A stretch of DNA of 64,000 nt from Rubripirellula sp. (GTDB taxonomy: Bacteria > Planctomycetota > Planctomycetia > Pirellulales > Pirellulaceae), in the NCBI GenBank assembly GCA_965216875.1, contig OZ244207.1:4448001-4512000 (forward strand). The letters are read 5' to 3'. Positions 35,472-52,712 of the stretch are shown piece after piece. Position numbers and translations under genes: made by a program. Under the pieces are notes generated by a model, which saw only the letters and a program-made list of their open reading frames with translations, was not told the DNA's origin and made no database searches. The stretch's first letter is position 1. Every line of letters starts with the position of its first letter.

Positions 35472-37691
35472 ATGTCAGCGAAGATCATCTACACGCACAC
35501 CGACGAAGCTCCCGCCCTCGCGACCGCGTCGCTCCTTCCGATCATCCAAGCGTTCACGCAGGGATCGGGGATCGAAATCGAAACCAAAGACATTTCGCTT
35601 TCGGGTCGAATCCTGGCCAACCTTTCCGCCTACCTGCCCGAAGACCAGCAGACGCCCGACGCGCTCGCCGAGCTTGGTGCGTTGGCCAAGACTCCTGATG
35701 CCAACCTCATCAAGCTGCCCAACATCAGTGCCTCGATTCCTCAGTTGACTGCCGCGATCGAAGAACTGCAAAAGAACGGCTTCGCAGTCCCCGACTTCCC
35801 AGAAGACCCGCAAACGGACGAAGAAAAAGAAATCCGGGCATGCTACGCCAAAGTGCTCGGCAGCGCCGTCAACCCAGTCCTTCGAGAAGGCAACTCCGAT
35901 CGCCGCGTCGCCGCCCCGGTCAAAGAATACGCGCAAAAGAATCCACACTCGATGGGCGCGTGGTCGTCCGATTCAAAGTCACACGTCGCTTCGATGAGTG
36001 AAGGCGACTTCTTTGGCAGCGAACAGTCGCATGTGATGGCTGATGCCGGCGATGTGTCGATCGAGCTTGTCGGTGCCGATGGCCAAACCACCCAATTGCG
36101 TCCCCCCGTTGCACTTCAAAAAGACGAGATCATCGATTCGTCTTTGATGAGCCGTGAAGCACTGCGAGGTTTCCTTGCTCGCGAAATCGAAGACGCAAAA
36201 GAGCAAGGCGTCCTGCTGTCGTTGCACATGAAGGCGACGATGATGAAGGTCTCCGATCCAATCATTTTCGGCCACTGCGTTGCCGTCTACTATCAAGAGG
36301 TATTTGACAAATACGGCGATCTGTTTGATGAACTTGGTGTCGCAACGAAGAACGGGATCGGCGACGTCTACGCAAAGATTGAATCGCTTCCCGAAGACAA
36401 ACAGGCCGAAATCAAAGCGGCACTCGACGCGGTCTACCAATCGCGTCCGAAACTGGCGATGGTCGATTCGGATCGCGGCATCACCAACCTACATGTTCCA
36501 AGTGACATCATCATCGATGCGTCGATGCCAGCCGCGATTCGAAGCTCGGGCAAGATGTGGGGGCCGGACGGGCAACTGCACGACACCAAAGCGATCATTC
36601 CAGACCGCTGCTACTCGGGCATCTACCAAGCGACCATCGACTTCTGCAAACAGAACGGTGCGTTCGACGTCACGACGATGGGCAACGTGTCCAACGTCGG
36701 CTTGATGGCACAAAAGGCGGAAGAGTACGGAAGCCACGACAAGACCTTTGAAATCCCTCACGCCGGTACCGTTCGCGTCGTTGATCAAAACGGCACCGTC
36801 TTGATGCAGCACGAAGTTGCCGCCGGGGACATCTGGCGGATGTGCCAAACGAAAGACGTCGCCGTTCGCGACTGGGTCCGCTTGGCGGTCAGCCGGGCGC
36901 GTGCAACAGGTTCGCCCGCCATCTTCTGGCTCAACAAGGATCGTGCTCACGACGCAAACCTGATTGAAAAGGTAGGCGTCTACCTGAAAGATCACGATAC
37001 CGACGGACTCGAAATTGACATCCTCGCTCCGGTCGACGCGGCCAATCACGCGTGCCAACGCGCCGCCGATGGTAAAGACACCATTTCGGTCACCGGAAAC
37101 GTGTTGCGAGATTACCTGACCGACCTGTTTCCGATCCTCGAACTAGGCACGAGCGCCAAGATGCTCTCGATCGTGCCGTTGCTTGCCGGCGGCGGCCTGT
37201 TCGAAACCGGCGCAGGCGGTTCGGCGCCGAAGCACGTGCAACAATTCGTCGAAGAAAACCACTTGCGTTGGGATTCTCTCGGCGAGTTCCTTGCGATCGC
37301 CGTTTCACTCGAAGACTTGGCGTCCAAGACCGACAATTCCCAGACCGCCATCTTGGCTAAAACGCTCAACGATGCCGTCGGCCAAATCCTGGACAACAAC
37401 AAGTCGCCCAGTCGAAAAGTCAACGAACTCGACAATCGCGGCAGCCATTTCTACTTGGCCATGTACTGGGCTCAAGCACTTGCCAGCCAAACCGATTCGA
37501 CGGAACTATCGGAGCGGTTCGCAGGCGTCGCCGCAAAGTTGGCTGAGAGTGAACAAGAGATCGTCGATGAGCTCAATGCGGCTCAGGGGATCGCCGTCGA
37601 CATTGCCGGTTACTACCAACCCAATGCCGCGAAAGTCTCAGCCGCAATGCGCCCAAGTGCCACCTTCAACGAGATCCTCGGATCCCTGTGA
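35472..37691 (+). CDS. icd: Monomeric NADP-dependent isocitrate dehydrogenase
   Basis: [60 protein letters not shown]; 739 aa. Confidence 0.98.
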
Positions 37692-37716
37692 TTTTTGAAG
37701 TGTCGCCTTTCGCTCC

Positions 37717-37864
37717 CCCCTCGTGACCACGCTCTGCGTGGTCACGGATTCTTGGACGCTCCGCGTCCCTAGCTCATGAACCAAACGCTCTACCGTCCTC
37801 CCGCGTGAGCCGCTTCTAGGCGGACCGCATGAAGATTCCGGCTAAAGCTCGGTACTACAAACGG
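37717..37864. repeat. REP-like palindromes between convergent genes
   Basis: CGTGACCACGC-TCT-GCGTGGTCACG hairpin and GATTCCGGCTAAAGCTCGGTACTACAAACG. Confidence 0.7.
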
Positions 37865-37880
37865 GTCATGCGCAGGGTGC

Positions 37881-39665
37881 CTACTTGGCGCTCAGCACAA
37901 CTTGGTGTGCGCCGCCGATCACTTTGTCACCTTCGACAATCGATGCCTTGAGCGAAAACTCGCCGGCGGGAAATCTGACGGTCACTCGATGCCCGGCGCG
38001 ACGGCCAGCCATTAGCGGAACGGTCTCTGTCTTCGTGCCAAAGTCCAATCGTGCACTGCGACCTTCGGTTTCGGCGTCAGGCAAAATCACTTCCACCTCA
38101 AACTCTCGCTCGGCGGCATTCTCGAGCAACCAAAAACCGGTCGAGTCCTTTGCCCACGGCCGACCACTGACGTGCCGCCAATCCTGACGCGTCAGCACGG
38201 TGGTTGGCTCGTGCGTCGTACCAACCACGATGTTCGGCGGGGCGTAGTTGTTGGGCCGTGTCGACGAAACATCCGCAAACCAATCTTCATAGGCCTTTGC
38301 AAGTCGCGCGACCACTTCTGGGTGTGCGGCCGCAAGGTCCTTGCGTTGTTGCGGGTCGGCCTTCAGATCGTAAAGTTCAAGCTTTGCCGCCCCCTCGAAT
38401 CGTTCTTTTCCGAAGCCGCTCGGGTGAACGAGTTTCCAAGGCCCTTCATGCAACGCGAAATGATGAAACGGCTGCGGCTGGTTCCCTCGATGGGACTGAA
38501 AGACAAGCTGGCGTGTAGGCCAATCCGCCTTGGCTTCGGTAAGCAGCGGCAAAAAACTGCGACCATCGATTTTGTTTTCGCCACTTGCGTCGACACCACA
38601 TGCTTCAAGCAGGGTCGGCAACAAATCGAGATGCGCACACATTTCACTGGATGTTGCGTTCGCTTTCACCTTCGCTGGCCAATGGAACACCAACGGGGAC
38701 CGAATGCCGCCATCATCCATATGCGTTTTCATGCCACGCATGTTCCCGACATACCGCATCGTGTTGGGCCCGTTGTCATTCAGGTAAATCACAATCGTGT
38801 TGTCTGCGATGCCCAACTGATTGAGTTTGTCCATGAGTTTGCCGACGTTGTCATCAATGTTGGTGATCATCGCGGCGATTCGTGCAAGTCTGTCCTGCTC
38901 GGCTTCAAGTTGTTTGGGCCGGCGATTACCAACAACGATCGGCTTAAAATCGACTTGCTTGTATTCTTCGTACAACTCGGTCGGAACGTCATGAAATGGT
39001 CCATGTGGTGCGTTCGTCGCGATGTAGGCAAAGAAAGGTTCGTCTTTCGAAACCGATCCGGATACGAAATCGATCGCCGCGTCGAAAAACAGATCGGTGC
39101 AATAGCCCTGCATCTGCACTTGCTGGCCATTGCGAAACAGGATGGGATCGGTGTAATTGCCTTCGGCGCCGATCGGATCGGACGGTTGACCAATGCCGCC
39201 GCCTCGATGAATCAGGCTCACTTGAAACCCTTGGTCCATCGGCCGCATCGGATAGTTGTCACCAAGGTGCCATTTCCCAAAAATGCCGGTTTGATAGCCG
39301 CCATCACCCAGGTACTCGGCCAGTGTCACTTCGTCGGGATCCATCATCGCGCGGCCAACGTAGGTATCGATACAGCGCGTTCGATAGTTGTAGCGTCCCG
39401 TCATCAAACTGGCTCGCGTCGGAGCACACACGTTGCTGACGTAGAAGTTACTCAAGTAACCGCTCTTGGCATGCAACGCATCCAAGGATGGAGTGCGAAT
39501 GATGTCGTTTCCCATGAATCCATAGTCGCCGACTCCCTGGTCGTCACTCATGATGACAATCACATTGGGGCGGTCCGCAGAAAGCCGACTCGGGAAAGAA
39601 CAATGGATCACTGCGAACACGATCGCAGCGCAAAAGGAAAAGGAAAACATTCGAAAACGCATCAA
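37881..39665 (-). CDS. Arylsulfatase (formylglycine-dependent)
   Basis: PNVIVIMSDDQG, CAPTRASLMTG, GKWHLG, DNG. Confidence 0.95.
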   Translation of the reverse strand: MMRFRMFSFSFCAAIVFAVIHCSFPSRLSADRPNVIVIMSDDQGVGDYGFMGNDIIRTPSLDALHAKSGYLSNFYVSNVCAPTRASLMTGRYNYRTRCIDTYVGRAMMDPDEVTLAEYLGDGGYQTGIFGKWHLGDNYPMRPMDQGFQVSLIHRGGGIGQPSDPIGAEGNYTDPILFRNGQQVQMQGYCTDLFFDAAIDFVSGSVSKDEPFFAYIATNAPHGPFHDVPTELYEEYKQVDFKPIVVGNRRPKQLEAEQDRLARIAAMITNIDDNVGKLMDKLNQLGIADNTIVIYLNDNGPNTMRYVGNMRGMKTHMDDGGIRSPLVFHWPAKVKANATSSEMCAHLDLLPTLLEACGVDASGENKIDGRSFLPLLTEAKADWPTRQLVFQSHRGNQPQPFHHFALHEGPWKLVHPSGFGKERFEGAAKLELYDLKADPQQRKDLAAAHPEVVARLAKAYEDWFADVSSTRPNNYAPPNIVVGTTHEPTTVLTRQDWRHVSGRPWAKDSTGFWLLENAAEREFEVEVILPDAETEGRSARLDFGTKTETVPLMAGRRAGHRVTVRFPAGEFSLKASIVEGDKVIGGAHQVVLSAK

Positions 39666-39872
39666 GTGAGCCTGTGGTGGGAAAGGGCAGGGTAGGAGGG
39701 GAGCAAAGAGTATAGCTACACGTAGCCCTCAGTTCGAAGCATCGCATTTTGTGGGCGATCGCATGTGAACTCCGCCCAATGGCAGCACAGCCAACCTTCT
39801 TGGCAAGCGTAGCGACGGACTGGAGCGGCCGTCATAATTGCTCTCTCCAATCCCACCTCCAAAGCCCACACC

Positions 39873-41282
39873 ATGATTCACCGAAACACAACGCCCCAAC
39901 CAGCCAAATCGCTGCCACGTGTTTTTGCTCGATTGGTCGCAACCTGGTTGGGTCTCGCACTGCTCACCCCAAACCTGATTGCCGATTCACCGAAGGATGA
40001 CGCTCGCCCGAATATCGTTTTCATCTTGGCCGACGATCTTGGTTACGGCGATCTCGGTTGCTACGGACATCCTGATGCCAAGACACCGCGGATTGATCAA
40101 CTCGCCGCGGAGGGTGTTCGCTTTACTCAGCATTATTCCAATGGCCCCGAATGCAGCCCAACGCGGACCGCTTTCTTGACGGGACGATATCAACAGAGCC
40201 TGCTCGGACTCGAATGTGCCATCGGCACCGGCAACGTGGGTCGCTACGACGACGCGATCAAACTCGCCAATGAACGGAATCTAGGCTTGGCCGCAGAAGC
40301 GACCGTCATCCCTGGACAATTAAAAAAGTCGGGATACGCCTGTGGCATCTTTGGAAAATGGCACCTCGGTTACGAACCACACTTCAATCCGATGATACAC
40401 GGCTGGGATTCGTTCTTCGGATACCTCGGCGGCAACGTCCACTACTTCAATCATCGGGAAACGAGTGACCTGCACGTTTTGTTCGATGGTGTGCTGCCGG
40501 TTCATCGCGAAGGCTACATGACCAAGCTGATCACAGACGCTTCGATCGAGTTCATTGAAAACGAAAGCGGTCCTTTCTTTCTTTATGTTGCCCACGAATG
40601 CCCCCACTTCCCGTACCAGGGTCCAGACGACGAGAACAAAGTGGTCAACGCCGACAACTGGATGGAAGTTGATCAGCGAGCCTACGTTGCCATGCTTGAA
40701 AACCTCGATTCGGAAGTTGGCCGCATCCTCGATTGCCTCGACCAAAAAGGCCTTTCGAAAAACACAATCGTTGTCTTTGCCTCCGACAACGGCGGCTTTG
40801 CCGGAGCCGCAAACATGAAACCGCTCTCGGGGGCCAAGGGCACAACCATGGAAGGCGGGATTCGAGTACCGCTGGTCGTCCGCTGGCCTGGGCAGATCTC
40901 TCCGAGCGTCAGTGATCAGGTTTCGCTGACTTTTGATTTGACCAAGTCATTCCTGAACCTTGCTGGCGCCGACACGAACACGCTGGCCCTCGATGGCATC
41001 GACATCCTCTCACACGTGGCAAACCGAGACCAAGATGTTGACCGCACTCTCTTTTGGCGCGGCAAGCGAGGCACGAAAGTGTGGTCCGCCGCGCGGGATG
41101 GCGACATGAAACTGGTGCGAAAACTTCAAAACGGCAAGCGAGAAGAGTCGCTCTTTGATCTGTCCACCGACATCAGCGAATCAAACAACCTGATCGACTC
41201 CAGCGCCAACACCGCCGCCAAACTCCGTGCCAGCCTTGACCAATGGGAATCCGACATGGCGGAACGCAGTAAGGCTCTATAA
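39873..41282 (+). CDS. Sulfatase (formylglycine-dependent)
   Basis: PNIVFILADDLG, CSPTRTAFLTG, GKWHLG, SDNGG, EGGIRVP. Confidence 0.95.
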   Translation: MIHRNTTPQPAKSLPRVFARLVATWLGLALLTPNLIADSPKDDARPNIVFILADDLGYGDLGCYGHPDAKTPRIDQLAAEGVRFTQHYSNGPECSPTRTAFLTGRYQQSLLGLECAIGTGNVGRYDDAIKLANERNLGLAAEATVIPGQLKKSGYACGIFGKWHLGYEPHFNPMIHGWDSFFGYLGGNVHYFNHRETSDLHVLFDGVLPVHREGYMTKLITDASIEFIENESGPFFLYVAHECPHFPYQGPDDENKVVNADNWMEVDQRAYVAMLENLDSEVGRILDCLDQKGLSKNTIVVFASDNGGFAGAANMKPLSGAKGTTMEGGIRVPLVVRWPGQISPSVSDQVSLTFDLTKSFLNLAGADTNTLALDGIDILSHVANRDQDVDRTLFWRGKRGTKVWSAARDGDMKLVRKLQNGKREESLFDLSTDISESNNLIDSSANTAAKLRASLDQWESDMAERSKAL

Positions 41283-41419: not shown

Positions 41420-42229
41420 CTAGCTTCGTTTGAAGGCGATGCCGCTTGACGCCGCTCCGTCGAGCTTGAAGGTGAACTGGTTGGCTGCACCCGTCCAGCT
41501 TCCGGCCATCTTTTGAAGATCGTTCGAACGCACCAATGTCAATTGACCGCCAGCGAGTCGAAATTGTCCTTGGAACATGCTCGACTTTCCCGCTCGATTG
41601 GCGGTCCACACAAAGCTGCCGTCCGCATTCAATTGCAGTTGAACGGACTGGTTGCCCGGCAGCGATGCCGTCCAGCGACCGACGTGATCGGCAGCCAGCT
41701 GCTGTTGAGATGCACTGACCTGTGCGCCCTGAGCGTTTGCTTGAATGCTTGGCGTTTGAGGGGCGGCCGCGTTGCTTTGTGAACTCTGACCACCCGACAT
41801 CGAAACGAGCAGTTGCAAAGCCGATGTCTCTGCGTTCGAAGCACTCACGGTTGACGGCTGAGCTGCCGGTGCTGGCGAAGGCGATTGCAATTTCTTTGGC
41901 GTTGAAACGGTTGCTGACGATTGACCGATTTGCCCAGCATTCGGTACGCCACCGGGTACTGGCATTCCAATTTGGCCGTGCACAGGTGCGACGCCATTGA
42001 TGGGCGGGGCGACAACGGGAGCGATCGCAGGTGGTTCATTGCAAATGGGCCTTTGCGGTGCGATGTAGACCGGTTGTCTCGCAACCGGATAGTGGCCGCG
42101 ACTCACCGAAACGAAAGACCGTCCACCGCGACCTCCGCACGCCGTCGCAGGGACGGTACAAGAAACACTGACTGCGATCGAGGCGGCGGCGAAAAACAAC
42201 TGTTTGATGCGACGTTTCATGGTTCTCAT
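41420..42229 (-). CDS. Secreted Pro/Gln-rich protein with C-terminal beta-barrel-like domain
   Basis: Signal peptide ending ATA-CGGRGG; low-complexity middle; VGRWTA...LNADGSFVW...G.F.L.GGQLTL domain. Confidence 0.8.
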   Translation of the reverse strand: MRTMKRRIKQLFFAAASIAVSVSCTVPATACGGRGGRSFVSVSRGHYPVARQPVYIAPQRPICNEPPAIAPVVAPPINGVAPVHGQIGMPVPGGVPNAGQIGQSSATVSTPKKLQSPSPAPAAQPSTVSASNAETSALQLLVSMSGGQSSQSNAAAPQTPSIQANAQGAQVSASQQQLAADHVGRWTASLPGNQSVQLQLNADGSFVWTANRAGKSSMFQGQFRLAGGQLTLVRSNDLQKMAGSWTGAANQFTFKLDGAASSGIAFKRS

Positions 42230-42308: not shown

Positions 42309-42337
42309 CCAAGCGAAACGAAATTCGCTTCGTTACA
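42309..42337 (-). promoter_or_regulatory. ECF-type promoter motif copy 1 (TGTAAC-N16-CGCTTGG)
   Basis: Minus strand TGTAAC gaagcgaatttcgttt CGCTTGG, about 80 nt upstream of the start at 42229. Confidence 0.85.
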
Positions 42338-42369: not shown

Positions 42370-43572
42370 TCAATCAGCCAACCAAGCAGCCAACGTATCG
42401 GTCGACGACTGCGTTTCCTTTTTCGGATTCAACTCTTTGCTCATGGCGCCGGCGATGCGGGCGACGTAGTCGATGGTCCCTTTGAGTGCTTCGTCGGGGG
42501 CAGTCGCGTCGAGCTTGGCAACATAGATGACCATGTGCTCGCCGCTTGACGTCTTTTCGATCGCCCAACCACCAATCTTGGTCGCTGCACTTTGGCGAAG
42601 GAGGCGATTCATCAGCTCGACTTTCGGAGCCTCCTTGCTGACCAAGACGAGCGACCAGATCTTGCGAACATCGGCTCGCTGGAAGTATTCGGTGTCTTTG
42701 GCAACAAAGACCGACTGTGTGCGGCCACCCGAGAGCGACTGCTTGATTTCGTAGTGTCCCGTGTCGTGCGTCTCGTGCTCGATTTCGGCGTTGTCCAAGA
42801 GTTCCTTGGTTGGCAGCGGCGCGGGCTTCCACGAGCTCGCCAAGAACGCTTTGATTTCTGCGATATCGACGCAGTAGCTTACGAGGGCACTTTGCGGAGA
42901 AAACGACTGAGCGATCGCAATCAATTCACCTTCTGCGTTGACGACGGGCCCGCCGCTGTCACCAGGTTTGATCGGGCTCTGAGTCTCGACGACGCGGAAA
43001 TCATATTCACCGTGGTTTGATTTGAACTTTTTGTCGTAAACCGAACGGACGCGACCCGATGTGTAGACCCAAAGCACGTCGCTGCCGCCCGGGTTTCCAA
43101 TCAAATCGACTTTCGATCCAGGTTTGGTACTCGAATCGGCCAGCTCAATTGCCTTGCCGTTCTTGGGCGACTTTGGCAGCTGGATGAGCGCCAGGTCACG
43201 TTTGCGATCGATCGCCACGACCTTTCCAGGTTGGGCCAGTTTGACCACGTTCGACAAATAGTGCTTTCGCTTGACCGCTGCCGTCCCGTCGGTCACGTCG
43301 GGGAAGAATACGACGGCCGAACGGCTATCACCGACGACGTGGGCGTTGGTGAGCACCAGACGTTTTTCGCCGTCGACGTAGACGCCCGTTCCGGTCGACG
43401 TTTTGTCGTCAGCGTCACTCGTGATGATCCATGCCGTTGATGCCAACGTCTCGGAGTAGTTGTCGGCATCAGCGTGGGCCGATTGAGCCGACAACGTCAG
43501 CAGTGCTGCGGCCGAGAAAGCAAAGAATACCGACTTCAATTTCGCGATCATGCTGGTACCAGAAAGGGACAT
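42370..43572 (-). CDS. Secreted trypsin-like (S1) serine protease with C-terminal YbjN/CesT-like domain
   Basis: Signal peptide; TNAHVV, DLALI, GDSGGP triad; C-terminal alpha/beta domain (GRTQSVFV...RLLRQS...IGGW). Confidence 0.9.
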   Translation of the reverse strand: MSLSGTSMIAKLKSVFFAFSAAALLTLSAQSAHADADNYSETLASTAWIITSDADDKTSTGTGVYVDGEKRLVLTNAHVVGDSRSAVVFFPDVTDGTAAVKRKHYLSNVVKLAQPGKVVAIDRKRDLALIQLPKSPKNGKAIELADSSTKPGSKVDLIGNPGGSDVLWVYTSGRVRSVYDKKFKSNHGEYDFRVVETQSPIKPGDSGGPVVNAEGELIAIAQSFSPQSALVSYCVDIAEIKAFLASSWKPAPLPTKELLDNAEIEHETHDTGHYEIKQSLSGGRTQSVFVAKDTEYFQRADVRKIWSLVLVSKEAPKVELMNRLLRQSAATKIGGWAIEKTSSGEHMVIYVAKLDATAPDEALKGTIDYVARIAGAMSKELNPKKETQSSTDTLAAWLAD

Positions 43573-43665: not shown

Positions 43666-43737
43666 GATCGCCTGAGCTTTTTTTTGAGAGCATTGGGAGA
43701 TGGGCTGTGAGCTAAGAACACATAAGCGGCCGCGCCG

Positions 43738-43803
43738 CGTTTGTAGTCCCGAGCTTTTGCCGGAATCTTGAGGCTCTTCCGCCTAAAGGCGGTACTACGA
43801 ACG
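43738..43803. repeat. GTAG-type REP-like inverted pair
   Basis: CGTTTGTAGTCCCGAGCTTTTGCCGGAA...TTCCGCCTAAAGGCGGTACTACGAACG. Confidence 0.75.
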
Positions 43804-43822
43804 GTGCGTGCAGAGCCCAATC

Positions 43823-44710
43823 TCAGCCAGCTTTCTTGAAGTTGAGCGTCATTGCGGTGCCGCCCTGAGCGTTCTTGATCTGCAGCTCGAAGGCGTCCTC
43901 TGGCGACTGATCGAATGTGCAGTCGAGAGTCACGTCGCCGTCACCAACGAGTTTCAATTGGTTGCCTGAGCGAACGACTCTCCCCTTCGAAACGGTCGAC
44001 TTGCCAGCTTTCACGTGGACCAATTGAAACCGAGCGTCGGCGGCGATCTGAATCGCGAAGGCTTCGTTGTTGGCCAACGACGCCGACCAACGTCCTGACA
44101 GCGAAGCGATGCTGGTCGAACGAGCGTTTGCCGCGGGCGACGCGGACCACAGATTGGCCTGTTTTTCAGCAAGCTGGGCCATGGCGTGCAGTTCGCTTTT
44201 CAGCCCGCTCGCGGTGACGGAACGATTCGAGATCGACGCGCGCACTTGCAGTGTTTTTGCGTTGGGATCATAGGCGAACGACCGCCCCTGATGATCGCCC
44301 GCAGCGAGGAGTTGAAGCAACGTTTGATTGCTCAATTGCGTGTCGCCGTCAATCTTGGCGAGTGTTAATCGACAGTCGAGCCGATCACGGTCGACGTCCA
44401 CGGCAATCGATGCGGGAAATTTCCAACTTGAGTGGGCCAGCGTGAGGGTGGCGTGATGATCCGAATCCTTCGCCTCCAAATTGGCCGTATTCAAGGTTTC
44501 GACAAGCGACGGAACGCTGGTGACGCGATCGACCGAGCCTGACACGTTTTTCGAAGCAACCGGGCTCACGTCGTCTGATTCTGACTCAGTAGTCGCATTC
44601 GACGCTTGAAAAACCGACTCCATCGCCACTTCGGAAAACAGCTCGTCTGCCTTCACTGGGGCCACGGACGCGAAGCTGATGAGCACAGTAAGAAGGGCTG
44701 AATGACGCAC
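43823..44710 (-). CDS. Secreted protein with YbjN/CesT-like domain and C-terminal domain paralogous to that of 41420..42229
   Basis: Signal peptide ending VKA-DE; LLQLLAA...FAYDP..KTLQVR.SISNRSVT; LSGRWSASL...GKS...G...SGNQLKLV...FKKAG. Confidence 0.8.
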   Translation of the reverse strand: MRHSALLTVLISFASVAPVKADELFSEVAMESVFQASNATTESESDDVSPVASKNVSGSVDRVTSVPSLVETLNTANLEAKDSDHHATLTLAHSSWKFPASIAVDVDRDRLDCRLTLAKIDGDTQLSNQTLLQLLAAGDHQGRSFAYDPNAKTLQVRASISNRSVTASGLKSELHAMAQLAEKQANLWSASPAANARSTSIASLSGRWSASLANNEAFAIQIAADARFQLVHVKAGKSTVSKGRVVRSGNQLKLVGDGDVTLDCTFDQSPEDAFELQIKNAQGGTAMTLNFKKAG

Positions 44711-44766: not shown

Positions 44767-44795
44767 CCAAGCGGAGCTCGGGTGAGAACGTTACA
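44767..44795 (-). promoter_or_regulatory. ECF-type promoter motif copy 3
   Basis: Minus strand TGTAAC gttctcacccgagctc CGCTTGG, about 57 nt upstream of the start at 44710; upstream A-tract. Confidence 0.85.
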
Positions 44796-44850
44796 GGTTG
44801 TGTGCGTTTTTTTTCGCCCGTGAGCTGTCAGGCCTTGGGCCACACGCTTG

Positions 44851-45023
44851 CGCACCTTTCGCAGTAAAGCCTTTAGGCGGCGGGCAAAAAGATTCCGGCT
44901 AAAGCTCGGGACTACAAACGGCGGCCGGTCGCGCTCACGCATTCACGGCTCACGCACCGTTCGTAATAAAGCCTTTAGGCGGCGGGCAAGAAGATTCCAG
45001 CTAAAGCTCGGGACTACAAACGG
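44851..45023. repeat. Two tandem REP-like units of about 70 bp (102-bp period)
   Basis: CGCACC..TAAAGCCTTTAGGCGGCGGGCAA.AAGATTCC.GCTAAAGCTCGGGACTACAAACGG at 44851 and 44953. Confidence 0.85.
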
Positions 45024-45052: not shown

Positions 45053-45080
45053 GTAACAAACTCCGCGGGCTCTCGCTTGG
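45053..45080 (+). promoter_or_regulatory. ECF-type promoter motif copy 4
   Basis: GTAAC aaactccgcgggctct CGCTTGG, 90 nt upstream of ATG 45171. Confidence 0.85.
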
Positions 45081-45170
45081 CTACTCAGTCACGAAACGAA
45101 CGGGAACGACGAGACGCGGCAACTCACGCTTCCTTCCACTTTCAAACTGCCGTCTTTGGAGAACGAAACG

Positions 45171-45575
45171 ATGTTGAAGAAGATCCTTTTTGCAGTCGCA
45201 CCGATGATGTTGATCGCAAGCTCCGCCATGGCTGACGACAACCTGTTGGCAGCCGTCGCCAAGATGGACCTCGACTCGGCAAACGGTGCTTCGGTCGCAA
45301 CGATCGATGACGATGACTTGGGGCAAGCGGATGTCGATGCCTTGCTGGGCAACGACGAAGTGAGCGAAGAGGAAGCGATTGCAGCTTGCTTCCGTCGCGT
45401 CGGTTACGGCTACCGATATCGCGGCTGGGGTTACAGCAGCTACCGTTCATGCTACCGGTCGTACAGTTGCTTTCCTTCCTACAACTACTGCTACCGTCCA
45501 GTGAGCTACAGCTACTGCACGCCGACCTACACCCGCTACGCCCCAATCTACACCGGCTACTGGGGTTGCTGGTAA
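45171..45575 (+). CDS. Secreted prepropeptide-like protein: signal, acidic pro-region, Tyr/Cys/Arg-rich core
   Basis: GGAGAA RBS; MLKKILF...SSAMA signal; D/E-rich segment; CFRRVGYGYRY...GYWGCW tail. Confidence 0.85.
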   Translation: MLKKILFAVAPMMLIASSAMADDNLLAAVAKMDLDSANGASVATIDDDDLGQADVDALLGNDEVSEEEAIAACFRRVGYGYRYRGWGYSSYRSCYRSYSCFPSYNYCYRPVSYSYCTPTYTRYAPIYTGYWGCW

Positions 45576-45678: not shown

Positions 45679-45718
45679 GCCCGGCTCCACGTTTGATCGT
45701 GGTCGCCGGGCTTTTTTT
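45679..45718 (+). terminator. Intrinsic terminator-like hairpin after the peptide gene
   Basis: GCCCGGC-tCCACG-tttgat-CGTGG-tc-GCCGGGC followed by T7. Confidence 0.7.
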
Positions 45719-45761
45719 CGACACTCCCAAACCAATTGAAATCCAAGAAAAAGGTCCTCCG

Positions 45762-46550
45762 ATGAACCGCACCCGTCTCATGCAATGTTTGCTTGCCACA
45801 GGTTTCGTGATTTCTGCGAGCCTGAACGTCCCCGCTCAGCAGATTAGCCCCGCACAGCAGATTAGCACCTCTGAAGTCCTGCACCGTACGAATCGATGCG
45901 ATCACGTGATTGCGTTGATCCACCGACACGGCGTCAACAACAGCGTCAACCGAGCTGTTGGCAACGCAATGATTCACCATGCTGCTTTCGGCGGCATCGT
46001 TGTTGATGAATCCGACGTTGGTGACTTGCAACTCGCGGGAGTCAACCAGATCGTCGACCAAGACTCGACATGCGGGCCCAAGTTTGCCGTCCTGATTCGC
46101 AACCAAAGCAACCGAGTGGTCAGCAACTTTCGCCTCTCCGCCGTCGGCACCCTCGGTCGCATCTCGCCCTTTTCGCCAAGCACAACGATCACGGTGGGAG
46201 CCATCGGCGCTGGCGAAACGTTGCAGGTCGAGATCACTCTGCCGCTCGAAGCACTGGCGATGGGTAACCGTAATGGCCAGATCATCGGTCTGCAGCGATT
46301 GGTGATTGCCATCGACAGTTTCGACGAATTGGCGGAAACGAACGAAGCGAATAACCTGCATGCGTTCAACCTTGCACAGATCCCAACGCTGACGCTTCCC
46401 GTCGAAACAACGTCGGTATCAACGACTGAAGTGCAAGTCGATGCACCGACAACGCAGGTACCGGCGACGGAGCCGACCACTCAAACCGACCGACTGCGTT
46501 CCGCCATCGAGAAACTCGCCGTCGAGCAAACGGGCGGGGCGGTGAATTGA
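45762..46550 (+). CDS. Secreted CARDB/Ig-like domain protein
   Basis: Signal-like N-terminus from ATG 45762; GDLQL...VLIRNQS...IGAGET...AIDSFDELAETNEANN CARDB-type signature. Confidence 0.8.
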   Translation: MNRTRLMQCLLATGFVISASLNVPAQQISPAQQISTSEVLHRTNRCDHVIALIHRHGVNNSVNRAVGNAMIHHAAFGGIVVDESDVGDLQLAGVNQIVDQDSTCGPKFAVLIRNQSNRVVSNFRLSAVGTLGRISPFSPSTTITVGAIGAGETLQVEITLPLEALAMGNRNGQIIGLQRLVIAIDSFDELAETNEANNLHAFNLAQIPTLTLPVETTSVSTTEVQVDAPTTQVPATEPTTQTDRLRSAIEKLAVEQTGGAVN

Positions 46551-46600: not shown

Positions 46601-48862
46601 CTATTCGCTTTCGACGGGAACGTCTGATCCGCGTGTCGACAAGACTTCAGCCATTCGATCCCATCGATGAGTGATCTGCAAGAATGCCAAGAACGACGCG
46701 ATCAACCCGACCACTCCCGCCGCAATCGCGGTCAGCATGAACCCGCGGGCTTGGCTTTGACTGGAAATGATCAAAGCGGCGCCGAGCTGCGGAATGATCG
46801 CGGCAAACAGCAAGTAGACTTGGCTGCGGCGAAACATTTTTCGACGGCGTTTGTCAAAGTCATCGTCCTGCATCGAACCACCGACCAAGTGGGGGTAGTA
46901 GACCAACGTTGAAACCAGGGCGAGACCAAAGAATGGATAGATCATCGCGACACTGCCGCAGATCAACAGCGAAATGAAGAAGTGCGCGGCCTGAGCAGCG
47001 GTAAAGTCGGGATACATCGTCCAGAGAGCGAGTGGATAGATCAATCCAGCGGCCATCCAAAACGAACCCCCGATCACCGCCGCGCGATGCCCCAAGTTGA
47101 GCGTATCGTCGATGTTTTGACTCGAGACACGTTCACCGCGATTGGCCAATCGTATGCCGCGCACCATCCCCGAAGCGAACCACACCATGACGGGAATCGC
47201 CAACGGATAGGCCACCAAGTTGACGCAAATTGCGATCTTGTTCAGGCCATCGCGCATCTCACTGTCGAGAATCTCTTGATGGTTGTAGTCATAGTTGAAG
47301 ACGCCGCCAGCGATGTTCGGCAGTAGGATTGCCGCAACTGCGACAAGCCATGGCGACACCTTGGCCAAACGGGCGACCATCGAGTCTTCGGCCGGATCAA
47401 ACAGCTCGGCTGCCTCGGGATGCAACGCGAGACTCAGCCGCGCCGCCATTTGTGCGCCACTTTGCGGCCGATCTTCAACGGAGACCGACAATGCACCGCG
47501 AAGCGTTTTTTCCAACACGCGTTCCGACGCCGTGCCAGTTCGAACCGGCTCCAATAGCGGCAACTCTCTTGCCGCCAGTTGGCCTTGCACCGCATCGCCC
47601 CAAGAATCGACACCTTGCCGACACGCAAAGGGCCGTTGCCCCTGCCACAACTCCCAAAGCAAAACGGCAAGGGAATACAAGTCCGCGGCTTCGGCGACTT
47701 CGGCGGGTTGTTCAAGCCATTGGGCGCTGATCGCGCGCAAGTGTTCGGGGGCCATGTAGCCAATGGAACCACCAAACGAGGTCGCCGCGCCTGCCCTGCC
47801 TGCCGCCCCAGCAAAACTGACATTGAAGTCGGCAAGCTTCGGAGTCCCTTCTGCAGTCAACAAGACGTTTGCTGGTTTGACATCGCGATGCAGAACACCT
47901 TGGTCATGAGCAGCGTCCAAAGCGCGCGCCAATTGCATTCCGATCCACGCGACAACCGTCGGCCAGCCTGCCATTGCAATCCAATCGCGAATCGGCGAGC
48001 GGTCCGGGACGGCCTGGGCAGTGCCAAGCAAATTGCGATCGATGGTATCAAGTAAAACGTCACGCGGTGTTCCCGAGGGATGTTGGCGTAAGCTTTTGAC
48101 GACATCCGCCAACGTACCTCCAGGATGGAATTGCATGTAAAGCAAATGCAACGGCGGCTCTTCAATCGCCCGTTGGTCAAACACCCGCACGATGTTTGGA
48201 TGGTCAAACTGAGCCAGTGCGCGCGGTTCGTCACCGCTGCCCAAGGACACTTTCAATGCCACCAATCGATGCATTGATACTTGGCGAGCCAAATAGACGT
48301 GAGCAAACGCGCCCTGGCCAAGTTTTTGGATGATCAAAAAATCGTCGCATTGACTTCCGACGACCAACTCGGGCGGAGCACCGCGTTGCTCGACAGCCGC
48401 AGTCGCCTCGGCTGTTCCGATCAATTGTGCGAACATCCCTTCGAACTGAGGGAAACGGTCGCAATACTCCTCGCGCTTCGGCAGGTCACCCGATTCTTTC
48501 CGAAGCTGAATCTCTTCCATCACCAAATCGATCGGAATGGCGTCTTTTGACAACCACTCTGGCAACGCGTCGACGTAGCGTTCAATCCGATGTTGTTTGC
48601 CCGCCTCGGCCGACATCGCCAAGTCCATCTTGATCAGCTCGACCAACACGTACCGAGCGTCCGAGGGCTCGATCGGAGGCAGTATTTCACCGAGCTGGCG
48701 CGGGTCGTCAGTCGGTCCACACTCAATCAAACGTTCGAGACACTCAGCGATAACGTCATCGACGTCAACGTTGGCGATGTCCTCTGCAGCATCGGCTTCG
48801 TTTTGCTCGCGCTGCGGGCGATCCCACGAGTCGTCGTCTCGATCAAGCGGCGTGGGCGACAT
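46601..48862 (-). CDS. Ser/Thr protein kinase with multi-TM C-terminal domain
   Basis: GQGAFA, VALKVS, HRDVKPAN, DFN, GGSIGYMAPEH, DLYSL; about 6 C-terminal TM helices. Confidence 0.92.
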   Translation of the reverse strand: MSPTPLDRDDDSWDRPQREQNEADAAEDIANVDVDDVIAECLERLIECGPTDDPRQLGEILPPIEPSDARYVLVELIKMDLAMSAEAGKQHRIERYVDALPEWLSKDAIPIDLVMEEIQLRKESGDLPKREEYCDRFPQFEGMFAQLIGTAEATAAVEQRGAPPELVVGSQCDDFLIIQKLGQGAFAHVYLARQVSMHRLVALKVSLGSGDEPRALAQFDHPNIVRVFDQRAIEEPPLHLLYMQFHPGGTLADVVKSLRQHPSGTPRDVLLDTIDRNLLGTAQAVPDRSPIRDWIAMAGWPTVVAWIGMQLARALDAAHDQGVLHRDVKPANVLLTAEGTPKLADFNVSFAGAAGRAGAATSFGGSIGYMAPEHLRAISAQWLEQPAEVAEAADLYSLAVLLWELWQGQRPFACRQGVDSWGDAVQGQLAARELPLLEPVRTGTASERVLEKTLRGALSVSVEDRPQSGAQMAARLSLALHPEAAELFDPAEDSMVARLAKVSPWLVAVAAILLPNIAGGVFNYDYNHQEILDSEMRDGLNKIAICVNLVAYPLAIPVMVWFASGMVRGIRLANRGERVSSQNIDDTLNLGHRAAVIGGSFWMAAGLIYPLALWTMYPDFTAAQAAHFFISLLICGSVAMIYPFFGLALVSTLVYYPHLVGGSMQDDDFDKRRRKMFRRSQVYLLFAAIIPQLGAALIISSQSQARGFMLTAIAAGVVGLIASFLAFLQITHRWDRMAEVLSTRGSDVPVESE

Positions 48863-49030: not shown

Positions 49031-49654
49031 ATGATGGATGAAAACGATGATTCGGATCGGGTTCTGCAGATCAAAGAGCGGGATTCGCAAGCGTTGGCCG
49101 CCTACATCCAAGACAACCGGTCTCAGCTCGAGCGGTTTCTCAGGTCGATTACGGGTGAACACTTGCTTGCGGTGGTCGAAGTGGACGATCTGATCCAAGA
49201 AATCTCGACAGCAGCTCTAACCGGTCTGCCCACCGCGCCGCTCGATCAGTACGAGCCGATGCAATGGTTGCAGCAGATTGCCAGGCGCCGCGTGGTCGAT
49301 GCGCACCGTTTTCACTTTGATGCCAAGCGGCGCGATGTGGGCCGGCAAAAATCGTTGAACGCCGCGGCCAGTCCCGACGCTTCCATGATGGGTCTCGAAC
49401 AGCTTTTGGCGGCGAGTATGACGTCACCAAGCGCTGTGGTCAGCCAGGACATTCGAATGTGCCGGATCCAGCAAGTGATCGAAGAGCTGCCCGATGAACA
49501 GAAGCAGGCAATCCGAATGCGCTACGTCGACGGTTTGCCGACCAAACAGATTGCCGAGGAACTTGGCAAAACCGATGTCGCCATCCGCGTGCTCCTTTCT
49601 CGCAGCATGCGTCAACTCGAAAAGCAGCTCGAAGACGTCCGACCAACACGCTGA
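49031..49654 (+). CDS. ECF sigma factor, planctomycete kinase-associated type
   Basis: DDLIQE, WLQQIARRRVVDAHRFH, LAASMTSPS, LPDEQKQAIRMRY..GLPTKQIAEELGKT; divergent from the kinase gene. Confidence 0.93.
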   Translation: MMDENDDSDRVLQIKERDSQALAAYIQDNRSQLERFLRSITGEHLLAVVEVDDLIQEISTAALTGLPTAPLDQYEPMQWLQQIARRRVVDAHRFHFDAKRRDVGRQKSLNAAASPDASMMGLEQLLAASMTSPSAVVSQDIRMCRIQQVIEELPDEQKQAIRMRYVDGLPTKQIAEELGKTDVAIRVLLSRSMRQLEKQLEDVRPTR

Positions 49655-49977: not shown

Positions 49978-50005
49978 GTAACACTCGGCCCTCCACTCCG
50001 CTTGG
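49978..50005 (+). promoter_or_regulatory. ECF-type promoter motif copy 5
   Basis: GTAAC actcggccctccactc CGCTTGG, 58 nt upstream of ATG 50064; upstream A-tract. Confidence 0.85.
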
Positions 50006-50063: not shown

Positions 50064-50588
50064 ATGATGAGCCGCTCCAAAACCACGCAAATCCTGCTTT
50101 TTTCCGCCGCCTGTTCCGTTCTGCTGCTCAGCGCCCCCACCGCCGAAGCCGGCAATGGTTGGGGTTGGAAAAAACCGATGAATCAGAAAATGGGAGCGTT
50201 CTACACCGGCAACAAAAAACTGCGACGCTCGTCCACATCGAGCTCGAGCCACTCCTCGCGTTACCGCCACTCGACTCATTCGACCTACCGAACGGTGACA
50301 CCCCGTACCTATCATTCCGCTCCGGTCGTCGTGAAGACCGTGCCCCAAACCGTGATGCCCATCCAACCGGCTCCCGTCACCCACGCGCCCTCCGCAACGG
50401 TACCGCCCCCAACACAGACTGCTCCGATCACAACGGCATTGCCCGAGCAGCCCCTGGCCGTTTCTGCCGCTCAACCCAAACCGGCGACTGCAAAGCCAGT
50501 GCAGGTCCCAACCCAGAAAGCGGAACAAGCCCCACCGACCGCAGAACAACAAGCCCTCGAGCTCCTTGGTCCTTGGCTCGCAAAGTGA
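50064..50588 (+). CDS. Secreted basic, Ser/Pro/Thr-rich low-complexity protein
   Basis: Signal peptide ending AEA-GNGWGW; basic His/Ser/Arg segment; Pro-rich linker; AEQQALELL tail. Confidence 0.75.
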   Translation: MMSRSKTTQILLFSAACSVLLLSAPTAEAGNGWGWKKPMNQKMGAFYTGNKKLRRSSTSSSSHSSRYRHSTHSTYRTVTPRTYHSAPVVVKTVPQTVMPIQPAPVTHAPSATVPPPTQTAPITTALPEQPLAVSAAQPKPATAKPVQVPTQKAEQAPPTAEQQALELLGPWLAK

Positions 50589-50600
50589 GCAAAGGACATT

Positions 50601-50691
50601 GGACAGAAAGATGAGGGACAAAAAATGGTCGGTCACCCAACCTGATCATCAAGCCACGCGCCATCATCTTTCTGTCCCCCATCTTTCTGTC
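50601..50691. repeat. Inverted repeat of the GACAGAAA(A/G)ATG family
   Basis: GACAGAAAGATGAGGGACAAAAAATG ... CATCTTTCTGTCCCCCATCTTTCTGTC; same module as in the 6.7-9.8 kb repeats. Confidence 0.75.
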
Positions 50692-50758
50692 GACCACTCT
50701 TCAACCACTTACGAAGCCCCTCCGTCTTCGTTTTTCTGCCAACTCTTTTCTCCATTTC

Positions 50759-50784
50759 TGTCACAGGCCACTTTCTTCCGTGTC
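50759..50784 (+). promoter_or_regulatory. Candidate ECF promoter TGTCACA-N14-GTGTC
   Basis: Single copy 45 nt upstream of the SRPBCC-like/ECF gene pair; resembles TGTCACA-type ECF promoters. Confidence 0.45.
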
Positions 50785-50829
50785 CAAGTAAGAAACCCCC
50801 CGCTTCTTGGCACAAAAAAGGTCTGTGAA

Positions 50830-51237
50830 ATGAAATACTGTCACGAGTTCATCGAAATCGATTGTCCTGTCGACGACGCCATGGCATTGTTTGGCGACCC
50901 ATTGCGTCTGCCCGAATGGGCGATTGAATACTGTCAAACGATCGCGAAAACCGATAGTGGCTATGTTGCCGAGACGGTCGAAGGCTCACGTTGCTTCAAC
51001 ACTCGCGTCGATCGTGCGATGGGAGTGGTTGACGCTTGTTCGGGTTCCAACCACGACCAATTGAATGACATCCTGCATATTCGTTTGGTGCCCGCGGCAG
51101 ACGACAAAACGCTTGCGAGCTTCATCTACTCTCCACCAGGACAGGTCCCGCCGGAAGTGCTTCAACTGATGCAAACGGGACTCAACAAAGAGGTCCAACA
51201 CGCCAAAGCGATGCTTGAATCCGCCGTGCTCCAATAG
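50830..51237 (+). CDS. SRPBCC/polyketide-cyclase-like protein
   Basis: IEIDCPVDDAMALFGDPLRLPEWA N-terminal pattern and C-terminal helix; ATG 50830. Confidence 0.7.
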   Translation: MKYCHEFIEIDCPVDDAMALFGDPLRLPEWAIEYCQTIAKTDSGYVAETVEGSRCFNTRVDRAMGVVDACSGSNHDQLNDILHIRLVPAADDKTLASFIYSPPGQVPPEVLQLMQTGLNKEVQHAKAMLESAVLQ

Positions 51238-51294
51238 CGATTCCACGTGCGATGAGTCCAACCCCGCTTCGAGTTCGCTAGCCACCGAGTTGTC

Positions 51295-52188
51295 ATGGTT
51301 TCTGAATTGACCAACCCCTTCCAGGAAGATCCTCATATCGATGTGACCGACCAACAGTTGGTTGCCCAGGCGTTGGAGGGCAGTGGAGATGCGTTAGAGA
51401 AACTCGTTGCGGGTCATCAAGCTTGGCTATTCAACATCGCCGTGCGCATGGTCTGGAATGCGACGGATGCCGAAGACGTGGTTCAAGAAGTGATGATCAA
51501 GGCGGTCACAAAACTCTCCACCTTCCGAGGCGAGAGTTCGTTTCGCACTTGGTTGTACCGCATCGCTTGCAATCACGTCTTGAATATGAAACGTCGCACC
51601 TCGGAAGAACAGTTAGTGAGTTTTTCGCAATTCAGCGACGATCTCGACCGAATCCCCGATCGCGAATTGCCCGATCCCGAATCAGTGCCCGTTGACCTTC
51701 CGGTCCTCGTCGAGGAAGCGAAACTCGGTTGCCTCTCTGCAATGCTCCTCGGCCTCGATCGCCGCCAGCGGCTCGCCTACACGCTTGTCGAATTGCTGGG
51801 AGCGAGTTCACAGACGGCTGCCGAGTTGATGGAGATCACACCGGCCAACCTGCGCCAAATCGTCCATCGAGCGCGCCAGGAACTTTATCAGTTCATGAAT
51901 GGCAACTGCGGTTTGGTGAACAAAGACAACCGCTGTCGGTGTGCGGCCAAAACGCCATCGTTCATCGACGCTGGTTACGTTGAACCGGCGAACATTCGCT
52001 TTGCAGATGCATCCGCTCCAAGACTTGACACTAACGCCAAGTCACTTGAAGTGCTCGAATCGAGGGTCGACCAACTGCATCGCGAACAACAGCAGCAAGC
52101 GCGATTCATGACGCCGCCCGATGCAAAGAACTCGCTGATGCGATTTTTGAGTGATCCAGCCGTCCGTGAAACACTTTGCCTCGACTAA
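51295..52188 (+). CDS. ECF sigma factor with Cys-containing C-terminal extension
   Basis: DAEDVVQE, FRGESSFRTWLYRIACN; extension NCGLVNKDNRCRC. Confidence 0.92.
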   Translation: MVSELTNPFQEDPHIDVTDQQLVAQALEGSGDALEKLVAGHQAWLFNIAVRMVWNATDAEDVVQEVMIKAVTKLSTFRGESSFRTWLYRIACNHVLNMKRRTSEEQLVSFSQFSDDLDRIPDRELPDPESVPVDLPVLVEEAKLGCLSAMLLGLDRRQRLAYTLVELLGASSQTAAELMEITPANLRQIVHRARQELYQFMNGNCGLVNKDNRCRCAAKTPSFIDAGYVEPANIRFADASAPRLDTNAKSLEVLESRVDQLHREQQQQARFMTPPDAKNSLMRFLSDPAVRETLCLD

Positions 52189-52214
52189 GCCGCGGGGCCA
52201 GATCCCCGAGCTGT

Positions 52215-52712
52215 TCAGCCGATACTGATCACGCTAGGCATTCCCAATTCGCGGCGAATCTGGCTCAGCTGTCCCGTATGCAATGACAGATGCGTCGTCA
52301 TCAGATGGCCAAGCAAATCGCCGATGGTTGGTAATTCTTCGACCAAGAAGGGCGTCGGGTTTGGCTGATCCAAATGCTCGTCAGTGACTTGCTGGAACGC
52401 CGCAGCCAATTTGTCGCCTGACTCTTTCAGATGGGCGACAAGTGATTGTTGTGTTCGGCCGTCATCGCCGATCTTTCCGCCGGGGCTGTTCGGACCGTAC
52501 GTGGGCATCATGTCCTGAATGGACGCCTGCGGCTGGCCAAGCAGATTGAGCCCAAAATCCATGCCCAGTGCAAGATGACCTGTAATCCATTTTGGACTGT
52601 TCGATCCCCCGCGAGGCTCGTCAAACGCTTCTGGCGACAGTCCACTCGCTGCCTCTGCCGCCATCATTCGCATCAACTCAAACAAACGTAACATCGTTGG
52701 CGCTTGTGCCAT
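52215..52712 (-). CDS. DinB-family protein
   Basis: NSPKWITGHLA and HLSLHTGQLSQIRRELG His motifs. Confidence 0.88.
   Translation of the reverse strand: MAQAPTMLRLFELMRMMAAEAASGLSPEAFDEPRGGSNSPKWITGHLALGMDFGLNLLGQPQASIQDMMPTYGPNSPGGKIGDDGRTQQSLVAHLKESGDKLAAAFQQVTDEHLDQPNPTPFLVEELPTIGDLLGHLMTTHLSLHTGQLSQIRRELGMPSVISIG

Follow-up and report, generated by a model that had tools for sequence, protein, structure and literature searches.

In curli (CsgA-G), Fap and TasA/TapA/SipW, an abundant low-complexity subunit is accompanied by an Ig-like or chaperone helper and by a dedicated peptidase. Tyr/Arg/Pro/Gly-rich chains such as CotT, the sulfur globule proteins, the high-Gly/Tyr keratin-associated proteins and the mussel foot proteins form cross-linked coats, and in Bacillus subtilis the acidic N-terminal piece of CotT is removed after synthesis. 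Eukaryotic prepro-defensins of the alpha-defensin type consist of a signal, an anionic segment and a cationic C-terminal part that contains Cys. Among planctomycetes, the Cys-rich YTV proteins are known wall components (PMC8567305, PMC12673574) and are described from wall fractions (PMC8567305). On the regulatory side, ECF59s1 and ECF61 are planctomycete ECF groups with a kinase of five or more membrane helices alongside; the target promoter of ECF61 is reported as not conserved, that of ECF59 is given only as 'TC in -35', and target genes are left unnamed (PMC7826278).

The locus described here resembles curli, Fap and TasA in its logic and has no component homologous to theirs. Its central gene, YC, encodes a small secreted protein, is single-copy in a closed 8.26-Mb genome and lies, with the module around it, in the window, that is, the whole 64,000-nucleotide stretch of DNA that was analysed. 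In the libraries and papers searched, no described family or system corresponds to YC or to the module, and no description of either was found in the open-access literature; the logic of the module would parallel that of the matrix-fibre systems. The features of YC are the following:

45171..45575, + strand: YC protein, 134 aa, with a signal, an acidic region and a Tyr/Cys/Arg/Pro-rich tail (ORF translation and homologs)
45171..45233, + strand: predicted Sec-type signal peptide, residues 1-21, with an AMA/D site (read from the sequence; A21 is nearly invariant)
45234..45386, + strand: acidic region, residues 22-72, net about -14.5, with conserved D-V-D-x-L and E-A-[IV]-[AE]-A
45375..45398, + strand: junction AIAA-CFRR, with the putative cut A72/C73
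45387..45572, + strand: tail, residues 73-134, a Gly/Tyr/Arg/Ser stretch followed by [CY]Y[RT]P[VCSI]Y units with Pro every 7-8 residues, net about +7
45558..45572, + strand: terminal YWGCW motif; across 101 aligned relatives W131 and C133 do not vary

A ribosome site, GGAGA at 45158-45162, precedes the start at 45171, and an alternative TTG start at 45156 was rejected because this site fits 45171. The predicted signal runs from KK through a hydrophobic core to AMA/D. The composition given in the original prediction was exact on recount: a 21-aa signal, a 51-aa region (residues 22-72) with 11 Asp and 4 Glu, 15 acidic residues in all, and a 62-aa tail (residues 73-134) with 16 Tyr, 6 Cys, 8 Arg and no Asp or Glu, ending in GYWGCW. 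The acidic region also holds a single Lys, and the tail none. A lipoprotein reading of I-A-A-C was rejected, since an acidic linker rather than a hydrophobic signal precedes it. AlphaFold returned a mean pLDDT of 53.5, with low-confidence short helices at residues 23-39, 52-59 and 66-76 and none past residue 76; the tail, at pLDDT 42-48, was given no fold, although low confidence alone does not exclude one. When the genome was screened for 40-aa windows with at least 8 Tyr, at least 2 Cys and at most 1 Asp/Glu, 2 of 29,575 open frames of at least 100 aa passed, YC at the top and a YS/CS simple repeat as the other.

The homolog search gave 117 proteins including YC itself (116 relatives) at E<=0.01, out of 155 candidates, and those bearing names are planctomycete hypothetical proteins. 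Against 1.84 billion representatives the YC profile had 94 matches at E<=0.001, and ESM Atlas returned only unnamed planctomycete clusters at 0.92-0.93, plus a lead at 0.79. No Pfam or NCBIfam family matches the protein, and 70 diverse members compared with family profiles yielded scattered weak compositional matches only, among them SGP in 2/70 (best E 0.0085) and keratin families in 1-2/70. The three-part layout is kept across the homologs. The label 'eukaryote-style' is an analogy, and no eukaryotic homolog was found in the homolog and profile searches; two eukaryote-like profile matches (P0198 and P0205) were rejected as partial and compositional. Over 21 non-overlapping pairs, dN/dS was 0.23 in the signal (boundary approximate), 0.17 in the acidic part and 0.14 in the tail; purifying selection in all three parts, together with the homologs, indicates a real gene.

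The best-kept stretch of the protein is the junction. Strict AACFRR is present in 108/117 homologs and C[FY]RR in 112/117, and YW[GAST]C[WYFH] stands before the stop in 111/117, four of the records that miss the junction or the end being frameshifted or truncated; the original prediction had asked whether the A-C-F-R-R junction and the terminal YWGC are kept while the middle of the tail varies, and this is the pattern found. In a wider set of 179 relatives of 105-200 aa, from which nine proteins had been dropped for lack of a junction match and four for low-Tyr tails, the first tail residue is Cys in 164 (the junction Cys is absent in 15), a Cys lies within the last four residues in 176, and positions P4-P1 read A-[IV]-[AE]-A in 162. 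The tails are free of Asp/Glu in 173/179 and of Lys in 178/179. Each tail holds between 1 and 16 Cys, an odd number in 103/179; a fixed C73-C133 ring is possible and is not required, as 3/179 tails have a single Cys. In one Rhodopirellula locus (L040), the tail has Cys only at the two terminal positions. The mature protein has a net charge of -6.7 and the tail one of +7.3, and across relatives acidic excess against tail charge gave rho 0.16; with intact YC at -6.7 and this rho, simple charge masking of the tail is not demonstrated.

The surrounding genes, their promoter motifs and the terminator are as follows:

41420..42229, - strand: 269-aa secreted protein with mature start A/CGGRGG, a Tyr/Pro-rich low-complexity leader, a helix and a TIGR03066/lipocalin-like barrel
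42309..42336, - strand: promoter motif for the 269-aa gene
42370..43572, - strand: secreted HtrA-like S1 protease without PDZ, with His78/Asp126/Ser206 and a conserved C-terminal [ED]TLAxWL helix
43637..43664, - strand: promoter motif for the protease gene
43823..44710, - strand: 295-aa secreted protein with a CesT-like chaperone-fold domain (sub-threshold) and a lipocalin-like barrel
44767..44794, - strand: promoter motif for the 295-aa gene
45053..45080, + strand: ECF-type promoter motif GTAAC-N16-CGCTTGG of YC
45679..45719, + strand: intrinsic terminator-like hairpin and T-run between the YC and CARDB genes
45762..46550, + strand: secreted CARDB protein (Ig-like, metal-binding type) whose N-terminal part is a C-x-HV helix subdomain and whose C-terminal amphipathic helix sits on a linker
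46601..48862, - strand: Ser/Thr kinase with six C-terminal transmembrane helices, putative activator of the sigma factor
49031..49654, + strand: planctomycete ECF sigma factor; the model that fits best, TIGR02984, stays below cut-off
49978..50005, + strand: promoter motif for the 174-aa gene
50064..50588, + strand: 174-aa secreted low-complexity protein with an amphipathic helix at its end

YC and six neighbouring genes form a Pirellulales module, and the same seven recur in more distant Pirellulales. We surveyed 48 YC loci (our own and 47 others), many of which end at contig ends and two of which (L018 and L020) show the same duplicated region. A CARDB-like gene lies directly 3' of YC in 47/48, and the other companions were the 295-aa gene (28), the kinase (27), the ECF sigma (26), the protease (24) and the 269-aa gene (21); the downstream CARDB gene is the closest partner of YC, and neither it nor the ECF/kinase regulon figures in the original prediction. 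Loci L001-L068 contained no further gene family common to YC loci beyond genus-level synteny, and no tailoring, transporter or immunity gene was conserved in them; the earlier remark that no RiPP tailoring enzyme is visible holds also for the flanks of the relatives' loci. YC itself is duplicated in L018/L020, L042, L050 and L045, where each copy usually has its own promoter and terminator; in L018 the duplication is inverted, with copies about 7.6 kb apart. Around the module of this genome, a 739-aa enzyme resembling monomeric isocitrate dehydrogenase and two sulfatase-like genes (35472-41282) are not syntenic in relatives, and a second ECF sigma (51295-52188), with an unannotated small gene upstream and a convergent DinB-family gene (50566-52712), is not conserved with it. 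REP-like intergenic repeats occur at 44846-45023 and 43726-43810, as two 76-nt direct copies 102 apart and inverted copies about 1.1 kb away.

In a 301-genome sample of the order, YC was matched in 20 genomes, strongly in 18 (E<=2e-18) and partially in two (~1e-4). Those 18 genomes, and no others of the sample, hold full protease orthologs (E<=7e-86); the ortholog was also present in 5/5 genomes where it is not adjacent to YC, and four weaker protease relatives (37-46% identity) were found in YC-less genomes; CARDB orthologs (E<=5e-31) are present in 17 of the 18, with domain-only matches in 39 more genomes, and all these co-occurrence counts are descriptive, the genomes being related and not independent. 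The association of the S1 protease with YC, proposed from the one locus, is matched by an identical distribution (18/18). The exception for CARDB, genome G387, has a decaying module: its protease is split into two frames (L111, 4836-6024; L066), a CARDB ortholog and the sensor were not found, and its YC is the most divergent. YC is patchy, with 49 of 251 genomes of the family, 3 of 301 across the phylum and 0/2 congeners (one of them 97% complete), a distribution that speaks against a holdfast of housekeeping type. Genomes that have YC carry one to three copies, and the module is found in cultured strains, among them Blastopirellula marina DSM 3645 and strains of Stieleria, Novipirellula and Rhodopirellula.

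The motif GTAAC-N16-CGCTTGG has five sites genome-wide, all within 7.7 kb and one per secreted gene except CARDB, where chance would give about 1.1 genome-wide and 0.001 in 7.7 kb, for a motif drawn from these same sites. In an independent test on relatives, GTAAC-N16-CGCT lies at most 260 bases upstream of YC in 59/68, of the protease in 29/30, of the 295-aa gene in 26/30 and of the 269-aa gene in 21/23, against 2/52 for CARDB, 0/21 for the kinase and 0/15 for the sigma factor; the reversed-pattern control gave 0. The protease had been called co-regulated with YC, and the promoter motif common to both agrees. Orphan YC paralogs retain the motif, and relatives of the 174-aa protein elsewhere sit under the same promoter. 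A terminator-like hairpin follows 51/73 YC ORFs, compared with 4/300 random stretches. Co-location suggests that the sigma factor of the module reads GTAAC-N16-CGCT, and by analogy with known kinase-linked ECF groups the kinase would activate it. As in ECF59s1 and ECF61, the sigma gene adjoins a multi-helix kinase, here of six helices, a fit by description; unlike in those descriptions, the module shows a non-autoregulated GTAAC-N16-CGCT regulon. In R. baltica, we take RB7919 to be the kinase of the module. It is the sole RB791x row in supplement file 1 of a stress microarray, where it is down in heat (PMC2754498), and under this assignment the absence of the other module genes from the stress lists in that file is a weak hint against a general heat, cold or salt response.

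In the genomes of L023, L021 and L042 the motif also precedes genes for a class-3 lipase, PDZ proteins, an RTX-repeat protein, a kinase and several secreted Gly/Tyr/His-rich proteins, and such extra sites may partly be due to chance (10 against 2 and 9 against 2 control sites). Candidate further regulon members of these kinds (class-3 lipase, PDZ, RTX-repeat, kinase and His/Tyr-rich secreted proteins) were noted in L074-L092. The six-helix sensor of Pirellulales has conserved intramembrane residues, PN, FN..YN, H..S...CG and YP.F.

The model of the CARDB protein (pLDDT 79.7) contains an Ig-like CARDB domain with a D..E.NE.NN motif. Its best Foldseek match was 3idu (E 4e-5), the closest CARDB structure, which binds two metal ions, and VIA gave 2l0d (Z 8.4, rmsd 2.6, 102 aligned), with Ig domains of glycosidases scoring equally well; one relative exceeds the Pfam CARDB cut-off. 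Two Rhodopirellula loci (L040 8516-9304 and L038 8516-9304) encode a CARDB protein without the N-terminal C-x-HV helix subdomain. The CesT-like domain of the 295-aa orthologs was detected at E 4e-4 to 0.03 in 5/10, below threshold. The mature chain of the 269-aa protein also begins A/C, and a leader rich in Gly, Arg, Tyr and Pro comes next. All six secreted proteins have a short tethered amphipathic helix, with slight mutual similarity (21 vs 19 vs 17.5); homology of such docking helices between the start of YC and the end of CARDB proved weak and was set aside.

We examined 18 loci (L093-L110) from the 39 genomes in which the CARDB match covers the domain only. In these YC-less genomes, a CARDB domain of the same subfamily closes, or nearly closes, secreted proteins whose leaders are long, basic and of low complexity, and it often stands directly behind an aromatic Tyr/Trp/Cys/Pro segment; the promoter motif is upstream in 12/18 and a related kinase nearby in 5/18. 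Locus L096 has three or more large proteins of leader-aromatic-CARDB type. The YC-tail profile was equalled by 0-12 of 300 within-segment shuffles in 8/10 fused segments, a modest resemblance in order beyond composition, and was at chance in two, and with composition correction most of these scores fall near or below zero. The fused segments thus look like positional and compositional equivalents of the YC tail, with weak indications of homology. A tail-like segment fused to CARDB suggests that tail and CARDB act together and argues against a free peptide.

HtrA-type proteases are often quality-control enzymes rather than maturases. The protease of the module has the His-Asp-Ser triad in an HtrA-type domain, lacks PDZ and falls below curated HtrA cut-offs. 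By numbering inferred from HtrA alignments, the position of trypsin Asp189 is Pro, Ala or Gln in 30/31 orthologs (those with the motif), and position 216 is Phe or Ile in the 29 read. HtrA proteases are described as cleaving after aliphatic residues (PMC6509562). With an enzyme of this type and preference, AIAA/C fits as the cut and RR does not. Moreover, 96/111 YC tails carry at least two more Arg, so an Arg-specific enzyme would also cut within the tail; cleavage at RR by the S1 protease, as first suggested, is on both counts disfavoured.

YC is most likely a builder of cross-linked material in or on the cell envelope and not an antibiotic; of the functions first offered for the core, the structural one is the most likely, and the defensin-like antimicrobial is not supported. 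More specifically, we propose, tentatively and from sequence patterns, that YC may well be an inducible structural subunit, matured at A72/C73 and cross-linked with the help of CARDB into envelope or matrix material. The six-helix membrane kinase would activate the neighbouring ECF sigma, upon which the five promoters would fire, and as most YC mRNA would end at the terminator, more YC than CARDB protein would be made. Once YC is exported by Sec, its acidic helical half may keep the cationic aromatic tail soluble and present it to partners, until the HtrA-like protease cuts the small-residue end of the junction helix (AIAA/C) and frees a Pro-kinked Tyr/Arg/Cys peptide of about 7.7 kDa and net +7. 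Aromatic and Arg-aromatic contacts would let this peptide self-associate, disulfides between molecules, also at the near-invariant terminal Cys, would lock it into insoluble envelope or matrix material, and the CARDB protein may chaperone or decorate that material. A tail composition that is kept with 1-16 and mostly odd Cys fits cross-links between molecules better than a folded peptide. YC loci share no conserved outer-membrane channel, and CsgG had 0 matches in this 99% complete genome, with the search control matching in 4/14; with no export pore found, which counts against the scheme, the material may lie in the periplasm as readily as on the surface.

Comparison with the described materials sets the proposed subunit apart from each of them. 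Unlike the cross-beta repeats of curli, YC has Pro every 7-8 residues and many Cys, the Pro spacing arguing against long strands in the second half of the tail, and its control is by a kinase-linked ECF factor. Its composition is similar to that of the Tyr-rich structural proteins, yet no oxidase is linked to YC loci; a tyrosinase search matched 0/6 genomes, and its control also matched nowhere. The YTV wall proteins (PF07639) share with YC the phylum, secretion, a Cys/Tyr/Pro-rich composition and a P-V-Y turn, and the YTV repeats of this genome, in three wall-protein genes (genome positions 2948167-2949243, 7396592-7397164 and 7543877-7544224), have a K-P-V-Y turn in common with it. However, YTV proteins are of about 600-770 aa, Thr/Val/Glu/Lys-rich and encoded elsewhere in the genome, YC is by contrast patchy and presumably inducible, and YTV repeats were found in 0/70 YC members.

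A rather unlikely alternative is that YC is never matured and works at full length as a scaffold, its acidic helices docking on the CesT-like domains and the protease only clearing misassembled material. Such a role is suggested by the aromatic segment of the fused relatives, which has no acidic pro-piece ahead, by the acidic half having invariant residues of its own (D54 and L58 in the aligned relatives), by the tethered helix of all six secreted proteins and by the degradation of unfolded chains by HtrA proteins (PMC6509562). It accounts poorly for a junction that is the best-kept stretch, with small residues at P4-P1 and an abrupt switch to tails nearly always free of Asp/Glu and Lys, and for the co-occurrence of protease and YC in 18/18.

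Unlikely, too, is a peptide signalling loop in which the protease frees a peptide, for example the terminal YWGC-aromatic, and the six-helix kinase responds to it and switches on the precursor and the secreted enzymes. A precursor, a dedicated protease, a multi-pass receptor kinase and a transcription factor do share one locus, W131 and C133 are invariant, and the L023 and L021 genomes have the motif before further genes, some of which may be chance sites. In peptide quorum sensing of the Agr/Com type, however, the receptor is confined to genomes with the peptide and co-varies with it, whereas here the sensor family is in 138/301 genomes against 18 with YC (16 of these 18 have it and two gave no sensor match), and its membrane core is conserved across YC-bearing and YC-less loci, not hypervariable. 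The motif is absent before the sigma and kinase genes, and a signal would leave 60 residues of constrained repeats and the CARDB link unexplained.

Quite improbable is a defensin-like antimicrobial or anti-grazer peptide freed from an anionic pro-piece. YC is like prepro-defensins in its signal, anionic piece and cationic Cys-bearing C-terminal part, its tail (net +7) is rich in Arg, Trp and Tyr, and it is patchy, with one to three copies per genome. Unlike defensins, it has 1-16 Cys, mostly odd in number and without a fixed framework, a low-complexity Pro-kinked repeat tail under purifying selection and no sequence similarity to them, no Pfam defensin profile matching YC or any of the 70 members, and it is single-copy in this genome. 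It shares with RiPP and bacteriocin precursors a conserved leader, a variable core and a linked peptidase, yet that core is under purifying selection, and YC loci lack the conserved tailoring, transporter or immunity gene of those systems; nor can the fused relatives be free peptides. Very improbable is a periplasmic thiol/metal sponge, in which an envelope-stress sigma would control a Cys/His/Tyr tail that takes up metals such as copper or mops up oxidants, since the averages of 5.3 Cys and 2.2 His per tail and the metal ions of 3idu are offset by Cys counts of 1-2, by the lack of a metal-site spacing motif and by the lack of a metal-transport or redox gene conserved nearby.

Taking the cross-linked subunit as the preferred reading, a fuller scheme can be drawn, although as a whole it is doubtful. 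A kinase-activated ECF sigma would induce a pro-protein, a dedicated PDZ-less HtrA protease would take off its acidic half, the Tyr/Arg/Cys peptide would condense and disulfide-cure into a glue or coat, Ig-like and barrel proteins would be recruited through look-alike leaders and tethered docking helices, and YC would have split off an ancestral fusion of aromatic segment and CARDB, amounting to an undescribed bacterial route to on-demand protein material.

With this analysis, what was a hypothetical protein becomes part of a seven-gene unit that can be tested in cultured strains. A kinase-linked ECF sigma of planctomycetes also gains a candidate promoter and regulon, where the 2021 classification had left the targets of this class unresolved. 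Should the signalling or the antimicrobial alternative be true, YC would represent a new class of peptide, in a phylum from which few peptides have been characterised. If the structural reading is true, it would be a new protease-triggered, disulfide-cured bacterial protein material and would bear on envelope remodelling or attachment by these abundant surface colonisers.
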